Source: Eledone cirrhosa
Taxonomy: Eukaryota
Assembly: GCA_964016885.1 (NCBI GenBank)
Contig: OZ024758.1
Coordinates: forward strand, 19,034,001-19,098,000
Direction: 5' to 3'
Length of the DNA stretch: 64,000 nucleotides
The notes beneath the pieces were generated by a model. It worked only from the letters and a program-made list of their open reading frames with translations. It did no database searches and was not told where the DNA came from. The position numbers were made by a program, and so were the translations under genes. Each line of letters starts with the position of its first letter. Positions within the stretch are counted from its first letter, which is position 1. Below are positions 26,995-27,156 of the stretch, in pieces.

Positions 26995-27156
26995 TAGATG
27001 AGATTCTACAGGACTAGAACTGTTTCATTCATTAGAAATCTAATGAATGAAACAGTTCTAGTCCTGTAGAATCTCATCTATATTAAAACTTTTATACTCT
27101 GCTATGTATTGAGTACCTTACTTACTGTGGTTACCTCCGATTCAACCCGGAATAAC

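Follow-up and report, generated by a model that had tools for sequence, protein, structure and literature searches.

PLE insertions are known to carry an adjoining, inverted and 5'-truncated pLTR, optionally together with a tail; the origin of this arrangement, and of tandem PLE ends, is called undefined in the accessible text of PMC8557442. The available sections of PMC3846280 read the palindromes at such junctions as products of self-priming and note a TATA box and an Inr in the A. vaga pLTR. Drosophila Penelope has a TATA-less internal promoter according to the accessible part of PMC2377424, unlike the family B described below. For Poseidon, a PLE of Anolis, the in vitro work reported in the available sections of PMC11167929 has both target strands nicked and extended on unprocessed RNA, with a predicted dimer; two internal RT starts bound the tail near the ORF start, and ribozyme cleavage is dispensable. 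PLEs of the Hydra clade are marked by RWK and DKT motifs, a CxCx5C linker, CxxC and CxH in the EN, the absence of CCHH, and (TA)n targets (PMC8557442, in its accessible text).

Here we examine an inverted insertion within a 64,000-nucleotide stretch of the Eledone cirrhosa genome (contig OZ024758.1; hereafter the window) and compare it with related copies across the genome. We judge it probable, at roughly 0.7, that this hairpin is a head-to-head mini-insertion of a Hydra-type PLE, formed by two cDNAs that started from the nicked strands of an (AT)n target, ran towards the predicted cap and were joined end to end.

An inverted insertion derived from a hammerhead ribozyme

The hairpin at 26996-27157 is a PLE insertion, derived from a hammerhead and inverted upon itself. 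The first-pass annotation had described a perfect hairpin with arms of about 42 bp, and a palindrome scan halting at microsatellites confirmed it, with 41 of 41 pairs formed across 26996-27079 around a 2-nt loop. The folding z-score of this segment is -15.5, and equal stability was reached in 0 of 200 shuffles; the output of the built-in inverted-repeat finder and of Rfam was dominated by (AT)n in the window. The sequence of each arm corresponds to the 3' portion of a type I hammerhead, of which the window has intact copies at 36319-36369(-) and 37108-37158(+), so the description of the locus as a family B element with a mirrored 3' half also held. The copy has neither CUGAUGA nor the 5' strand of stem I, both arms beginning 3' of U7, and it is therefore not a type I hammerhead in the sense of a whole core with its stem I 5' strand.

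Two features of the original description needed revision. The turn had been placed in stem II; it lies at A9 and the 5' edge of stem II (GA[TT]TC, with a 2-nt overlap), but the stem II loop is not the centre and is instead found in each arm. In addition, the extent first assigned (26995..27081, 87 bp) overlooked the right arm's continuation for a further 74 nt to 27157, where (AT)n resumes. This one-sided extension makes the insertion about 162 bp long and asymmetric (Table 1). A related fragment of the family B tail is present in the window at 27568-27616(-), 80% identical to 27102-27150.

Table 1. Positions in the window of the parts of the hairpin insertion, the intact family B copies and the three fold-backs compared with it.
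Feature	Position	Strand	Remarks
Tail-less arm: G8-A9 through stem II, GAAA, stem III, GUA, stem I 3' strand	26996..27040	-	internal end CATCTATAT joined to (AT)n; carries the 2-nt loop
Head-to-head junction	27037..27040	.	loop 27037-27038; overlap common to both arms 27039-27040
Tail-bearing arm, palindromic part	27039..27083	+	begins within stem II 5' strand
Putative 74-nt PLE 'tail', single arm only	27084..27157	+	continues into ORF in L024 and L037
Intact family B type I hammerhead, subfamily B1	36319..36369	-	tail-less copy; no adjoining inverted arm seen
Intact family B hammerhead, subfamily B2	37108..37158	+	compensatory stem I changes
TATAAATA, predicted promoter	36392..36399	-	30 nt upstream of B1 stem I 5' end; CCAAT 84 nt upstream
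TATAAATA	37078..37085	+	30 nt upstream of B2 stem I 5' end
Family C fold-back	29722..29910	.	tail left; tail-less right arm starts at fixed 5' end (AGTC, 29854)
Family C fold-back	37244..37442	.	both arms reach fixed 5' end; tail-bearing right arm opens with extra G (37305)
Family D fold-back centred on long stem II hairpin	11509..11759	.	tail left; loop on tail-less right arm

Family B as the putative leader of a Hydra-type PLE

In the intact family B copies the order is stem I (AGAUUC or GGCUCC), CUGAUGA, stem II, GAAA, stem III, GUA and the 3' strand of stem I, with CUGAUGA, GAAA and GUA in type I order at both intact loci of the window. Stem II has 3 bp and a variable tetraloop; stem III has 4 bp and a palindromic loop. 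Across 11 distinct family B sequences, a set selected in part for an intact stem I, 98.6% of the cells of the three helices are paired and three stem I pairs are altered on both sides between subfamilies; in the same 11 sequences stems II and III contain no double-sided compensatory change. The MFE fold of family B differs from the hammerhead fold, and no hammerhead appeared among the best 150 of 332 weak Rfam matches, which microsatellite hairpins dominate.

An exact search with one 21-mer of subfamily B1 gave 17,512 occurrences across the genome of 3.0 Gb. At two of the loci that we fetched (L024 and L037) the tail leads straight into an ORF, of which a third (L062, 444-2728) holds a broken 2.3-kb copy with an RT followed by a C-terminal GIY-YIG. 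The Pfam match to GIY-YIG is weak (E 0.0013, below the cut-off), and Pfam returned no RT domain for three RT pieces of this ORF. By eye, it contains RWR (a variant of RWK), DKT, CNCLNKEAC (a CxCx5C linker), CDLC and CMH. Family B shares with the Hydra clade a single ORF of less than 3 kb, the RT/EN motif set without CCHH, a pLTR hammerhead and (TA)n as its insertion target. Because the tail is joined to the ORF and these marks are those of the Hydra clade, family B appears to be the pLTR, or 5' leader, of a Hydra-type PLE; the 74-nt extension would then be the PLE 'tail', with the clade assigned from motifs. The tandem units of non-LTR retrozymes were not seen, the copies examined being either solo or head-to-head.

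Two other fetched loci bear on PLE structure. A second PLE endonuclease region (L064, 2687-3979(-)) has a CxCx5C motif and an asparagine-rich insert that resembles the N-rich inserts described in the accessible text of PMC3846280. At L063 (C1:2989500-2996900), a pair of inverted family B ends (about 500 bp) encloses 7 kb rich in microsatellites; this interval is partly inverted in turn and contains a nested palindrome, a possible in-trans capture between pLTRs.

Most fold-backs across the genome turn at the 5' strand of stem I

Exact fold-backs between GAATGAAACAGTTC arms number 1,553, 4,609 and 241 for spacers of 0-30, 31-60 and 61-90 nt, respectively, for a total of at least 6,403, a count from which longer spacers and diverged copies are left out and for which controls gave 0. 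Loci were taken from all 50 listed sites of the 0-30- and 31-60-nt classes and 15 of the 61-90-nt class, which are the first sites on contig C1, not random draws. Together with bystander copies and the window these gave 116 palindromes; the 104 with one detected tail were mapped, and, after 11 of divergent subfamilies had been dropped, the arm ends of 93 junctions were weighted by class size.

The inversion centres had been expected to be distributed non-uniformly along the family, and the mapped junctions are indeed strongly clustered. Stem II, however, is not where they cluster: the peak falls at the 5' end of stem I, which is also the predicted start. For 77% of the weighted set of 93 junctions, the end of the longer arm falls within the stem I 5' strand, 17-22 nt upstream of GAATG; it lies beyond 22 nt in 8% and stays within stem II/A9 in 3.4%. 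Deletion of the catalytic core, which the annotation had proposed as a consequence of the snap-back, applies to the hairpin copy but not as a rule, since the longer arm is without a whole CUGAUGA in 11% of the weighted junctions and approximately 89% retain the whole core.

Direct junction patterns are stricter than mapping, so the counts obtained with them are lower bounds. The junction type of the hairpin itself recurs at 9 or more loci, with the loop on the tail arm in 4, on the tail-less arm in 4 and on neither in 1. Tail-bearing copies centred on the TNNA loop of stem II number at least 20 genome-wide, and at least 52 exact junctions are joined through stem I. These 52 could mark self-cleaved RNA as a template, although the 6-nt complementarity of stem I explains them equally well. 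In this class (loci L282-L311 among those fetched), one arm stops exactly where the hammerhead would be cleaved and is linked to its partner by the complementary strands of stem I. Several of the 61-90-nt spacers consist of repeated short copies of arm ends, resembling the iterated templated insertions of end joining.

The identical arms of the hairpin copy are also what an amplification or assembly chimera would show. At least 6,403 loci speak against artefacts of this kind, through their varied junctions, their single tail at most, their fixed (AT)n outer ends and the differences between arms in many older copies; moreover, 9 loci have one and the same junction, with both polarities represented, and the structure fits published PLE anatomy. 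We regard a chimeric origin as scarcely credible.

Fixed 5' ends in families C and D

The first-pass annotation had seen the geometry of the hairpin at three other loci in the window, near 11602, 29795 and 37243. The first of these does turn at a stem II hairpin; the other two belong to a different family, C, and do not, leaving 1 of 4 loci, the hairpin included, with a turn at a stem II hairpin. The element at 11602 (family D) is a minimal hammerhead with a long stem II, at which it turns, as do L243, with the loop on its tail-less arm, and L281. In a survey of family D (30 loci fetched for 31 exact arms, junctions read by eye), there are six inverted junctions in which one of the arms reaches, or slightly overshoots, a fixed start located about 78 nt upstream of the core. 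The window copy is the one stem-II-centred case among the 30 loci, and the exact stem II pattern matched 1 locus.

In family C, CUGANGA was not found at a fixed distance from GAAAC (64 scattered matches). The central TTTC/GAAA of its fold-backs is a mirrored CCAGAAATAG at the 5' end, not a hammerhead junction. The stem III of the family (GAAAC...GUC) resembles that of a hammerhead and has a palindromic loop, but CAGAA(A/U)UA occupies the position of the core and may represent a degenerate or variant hammerhead core. Family C arms stop at AGTCC: 17 of 27 bystander arms end at 17-22 nt and none of the 27 extends beyond 22 nt, and both copies in the window have their turn at this end. A loose TATA pattern in family C returned mostly microsatellite matches. 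Since families C and D also stop at fixed 5' ends, the stop follows the fixed 5' end and not the ribozyme. Family C, represented in the window at 29854-29910 and 37305-37360, is very abundant, with 6,665 promoter-bearing copies detected by one pattern.

The first-pass annotation has the growing cDNA fold back on itself at stem II and prime its own second strand, which deletes the core. The small class centred exactly on the stem II loop (20 copies with a tail) and the three family D copies that turn at the long stem II would suit such a mechanism; the hairpin, whose centre is not the stem II loop, and the family C centres, which have no stem II hairpin, would not. As the main turn site, stem II was rejected, given 20 loop-centred copies and 9 of the hairpin's junction type against at least 6,403 fold-backs.

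Four more palindromes in the window, with arms of 30-206 bp, lie at 1840-2274, 22770-22833, 31285-31655 and 41767-41978, the last with CTGATGA near its centre (41880). CTGANGA...GAAA motifs with short stem II candidates occur at 49403(-), 55299(-) and 27728(+), possibly in other PLE families. C-terminal coding fragments of a non-LTR retrotransposon, which we take to be RTE-like, are repeated at 14382-14924(-), 29272-29778(-) and near 34078.

The stop as a predicted capped RNA start

We next consider what the fixed 5' end might be. A motif heuristic applied to 99 of the first 100 listed B1 arms, in which two long arms were mis-mapped, separated 62 inverted from 37 solo copies. Seven of 10 short solo copies start at 19-21, the same stop as the palindromes, so that a palindrome is not required for the stop. 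Exactly 30 nt upstream of this stop, B1 and B2 both carry TATAAATA, and B1 has CCAAT 84 nt upstream; we take both to be core promoter elements.

The base between (AT)n and the start provided a further marker. Read by eye in 100 listed of 105 B1 cases, it is G in 65, C (the templated base) in 21, A in 13 and T in 1; of the 65 extra-G cases 53 read TG, and a stem I snap-back of 1-3 nt could also yield these. Among 31 cases in B2 (GGCTTCC starts) we counted 17 G, 11 T, 2 A and 1 C at this position, for which the template predicts C or A, the target T and a stem I snap-back T. Family C gave 80 G, 12 A and 8 C in 100 listed of 194, T being excluded by the pattern, and its promoter-bearing copies have T at that base in 100 of 100 listed. 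We presume that the extra G arises when RT copies the cap. Together, the stop shared with solo copies, a TATA at -30 and the extra non-templated G point to a capped start: the stop is likely to be the capped 5' end of the RNA, and the family B ribozyme is predicted to begin at the transcription start.

Self-priming on an antisense transcript also yields head-to-head palindromes, as set out in the available sections of PMC3846280, and would account for both the orientation and the near-identity of the arms. It predicts neither a stop 30 nt below the sense TATA, nor the extra G, nor the stop in solo copies, and we consider it very unlikely as the origin of these insertions.

Tail asymmetry and loop polarity

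The tail supplies a polarity marker for the junctions. Among the 116 palindromes, 104 have one tail and none has two; in 12 the motif test detected none, several of these being degenerate. A folded-back cDNA can be copied only as far as its own start, and the tail arm must therefore be the first strand and hold the loop. The junctions do not follow this expectation. In 82 clean junctions, 22 having been dropped for a divergent stem I or insertions of more than 6 nt, the farther-reaching arm is the tail arm in 33, the tail-less arm in 42 and neither in 7 (p = 0.36), and a difference of at least 8 nt between the arms favours the tail-less one by 14:2 (p = 0.004). Junctions of the stem I class give 23:7 in the same direction (30 examined, p = 0.005), the short arm bearing the tail in 23. 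The loop lies on the tail arm by 14:6 (p = 0.12) in the class centred on the stem II loop, a lean in the direction expected from snap-back.

These polarities contradict the claim that nascent cDNA primed itself at stem II, as the loop sits on the tail-less arm in the hairpin, at 11602 and in L243, and single-cDNA snap-back would place it on the tail arm, against 33:42 overall and 2:14 in strongly asymmetric junctions. With about 3% of fold-backs stopping within stem II/A9 and about 89% keeping the core, we think it highly improbable that self-priming at stem II produced these copies, the 14:6 of the small stem-II-centred class notwithstanding.

The tail-less end is used by 18 of the 37 solo copies, and this frequency indicates that it acts as a separate RT start. 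In 56 of 65 palindromes the two arms have the same variant of the stem II loop, where shuffling gave a mean of 10.8 and a maximum of 20; within B1 the figures are 35 of 37 against 17.0. Both arms thus come from one RNA or one source locus. Arm lengths are coupled even far upstream, in the 32-37-nt class and in L016/L017 and L034/L035, and two cDNAs made independently would not in themselves account for this coupling. Two further candidates were rejected: a random draw of two RNAs from the family pool is excluded by the concordance of the arms (56/65 versus 10.8), and an independent choice of RT start for each arm by the 0 loci with two tails. A test of hairpin geometry (overlap of at least 1 and loop of at least 3) gave 7 tail-side and 11 mirror cases among the 82 junctions, and carries little weight because the criterion is strict, omitting three stem-II-loop cases and loops that open the inner pair.

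A different form of snap-back would let the cDNA reach the 5' end of the RNA before folding back, after which the EN would cut the copy internally and later deletions at the centre, or resolution of a two-tailed hairpin, would scramble the side of the loop. In R2, snap-back that follows completion of the cDNA has been documented at 5' junctions (accessible text of PMC11371274), and EN-mediated resolution has been suggested for the tail in the accessible text of PMC8557442. Snap-back at the end accounts for identical arms, for correlated arm lengths and for the stop at the RNA end, and deletion of palindrome centres after insertion could indeed scramble polarity. The scrambling, however, is an extra step; the strong asymmetry favours the tail-less arm (14:2 and 23:7), opposite to what a tail-first cDNA would give; 18 of the 37 solo copies have the tail-less end; and in L045, L053, L099, L164 and the copy at 37243 both arms stand at the 5' end with an insertion between them. 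On balance we find this route unlikely. Some junction insertions do resemble fold-back synthesis (L045, L099, L164, L088 and some 61-90-nt spacers), and snap-back likely survives in the form of short templated junction insertions, perhaps including part of the small stem II class.

A model with two primers on one leader

The reading that we favour, two cDNAs started from opposite nicked strands, could proceed as follows. A PLE protein would bind the 5' leader of a capped, uncleaved RNA and nick both (AT)n strands; one strand would prime at the end of the tail and the other about 70 nt inside it, and both cDNAs, templated by the same uncleaved RNA or by RNAs of one locus, would head for the cap. 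Their 3' ends would lose 0-20 nt before microhomology-mediated end joining united them, leaving junctions with overlaps of 0-4 nt or short templated insertions. In the hairpin copy the trimming would have gone deeper, which is the proposed reason that it is without a core. The ribozyme helices, stems I and II, probably serve only as occasional microhomology donors, in a few percent of cases. In the boldest part of the model, the internal primer would go first and the distal one would displace its product, an order that fits the excess of short tail-bearing arms.

Both outer ends of the palindromes are fixed and are also used by solo copies, and the arms share a variant, as twin priming would have it. 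The non-overlapping pieces with an internal deletion that typify L1 were not seen in these palindromes, whose arms overlap; TSDs are unreadable in (AT)n. More tentatively, and at somewhat less than even odds, we suggest that PLE inverted ends and the one-sided tail arise when one RNP uses the same capped 5' leader for priming at both nicks. The internal primer would reach the cap first and the tail primer would follow by strand displacement, sometimes stopping short, before the 3' ends are joined. The thousands of hairpin loci with ribozyme sequence in this genome would then be a fossil map of caps and a direct read-out of how PLEs transpose.

Relation to known systems

Inverted ends, tails and self-priming have been published before; the mapping of junctions to a cap and the polarity test were not found in the literature searched. 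That search, which left out supplements and covered few subscription papers, returned no mapping of PLE inversion junctions to a capped start and no test of polarity based on the tail; such work may be contained in Repbase-type descriptions or supplementary figures. Hammerheads and palindromes are not mentioned in the available portion of PMC13282606.

With the tail as an internal marker of polarity, the thousands of junctions in this genome argue against single-strand snap-back; they link the junction to the RNA's 5' end and not to the ribozyme, with sharp predictions for the existing in vitro PLE system. In animal genomes rich in (TA)n, many short palindromes of the 'MITE-like' kind may be copies of PLE 5' leaders, mostly with the core retained. 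The analysis yields a testable model for an open step in PLE transposition.

Measured against described hammerheads and retrozymes, family B resembles the PLE pLTR hammerheads of PMC4209133, which in its accessible text are type I or minimal hammerheads, likewise of type I topology with a palindromic loop III, and, in Schistosoma, include pairs on opposite strands 100-700 bp apart. The retrozymes in the available part of 10.64898/2026.07.22.740005 are tandem units, each containing a type I hammerhead; family B is not tandem, and its stem III has 4 bp and its stem II 3 bp.

L1 twin or dual priming, as given in the accessible sections of PMC2837659, likewise has both strands prime, one of them internally, and leaves head-to-head products with little microhomology. 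Its inverted pieces do not overlap and flank an internal deletion, whereas the arms here overlap almost fully, which calls for strand displacement on one RNA or for a pair of RNAs from one locus; L1 is copied from its poly(A) end, the elements here from their 5' leader. Snap-back in R2 (PMC11371274, available text) is likewise fold-back synthesis after full-length cDNA and resembles our short templated insertions, but an inverted R2 piece cannot pass the start of its cDNA, whereas here the loop-less arm often has the longer tail.

Poseidon shares with family B an AT-rich target and, on the model proposed here, nicking and extension of both strands, an uncleaved RNA template and two RT starts, although it belongs to a different clade; neither inverted junctions nor the cDNA's 5' end are dealt with in the accessible text of PMC11167929. 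The PLE insertions described in the available sections of PMC8557442, PMC3846280 and PMC2377424 likewise show a head-to-head copy, a one-sided tail, (TA)n targets and a pLTR hammerhead. The copies studied here are mostly units of 120-200 bp without an ORF, with a tail of about 70 nt compared with 30-40 bp in those papers. Their junctions coincide with a single fixed 5' end, where an extra G is added. The cited sources favour self-priming or EN resolution.
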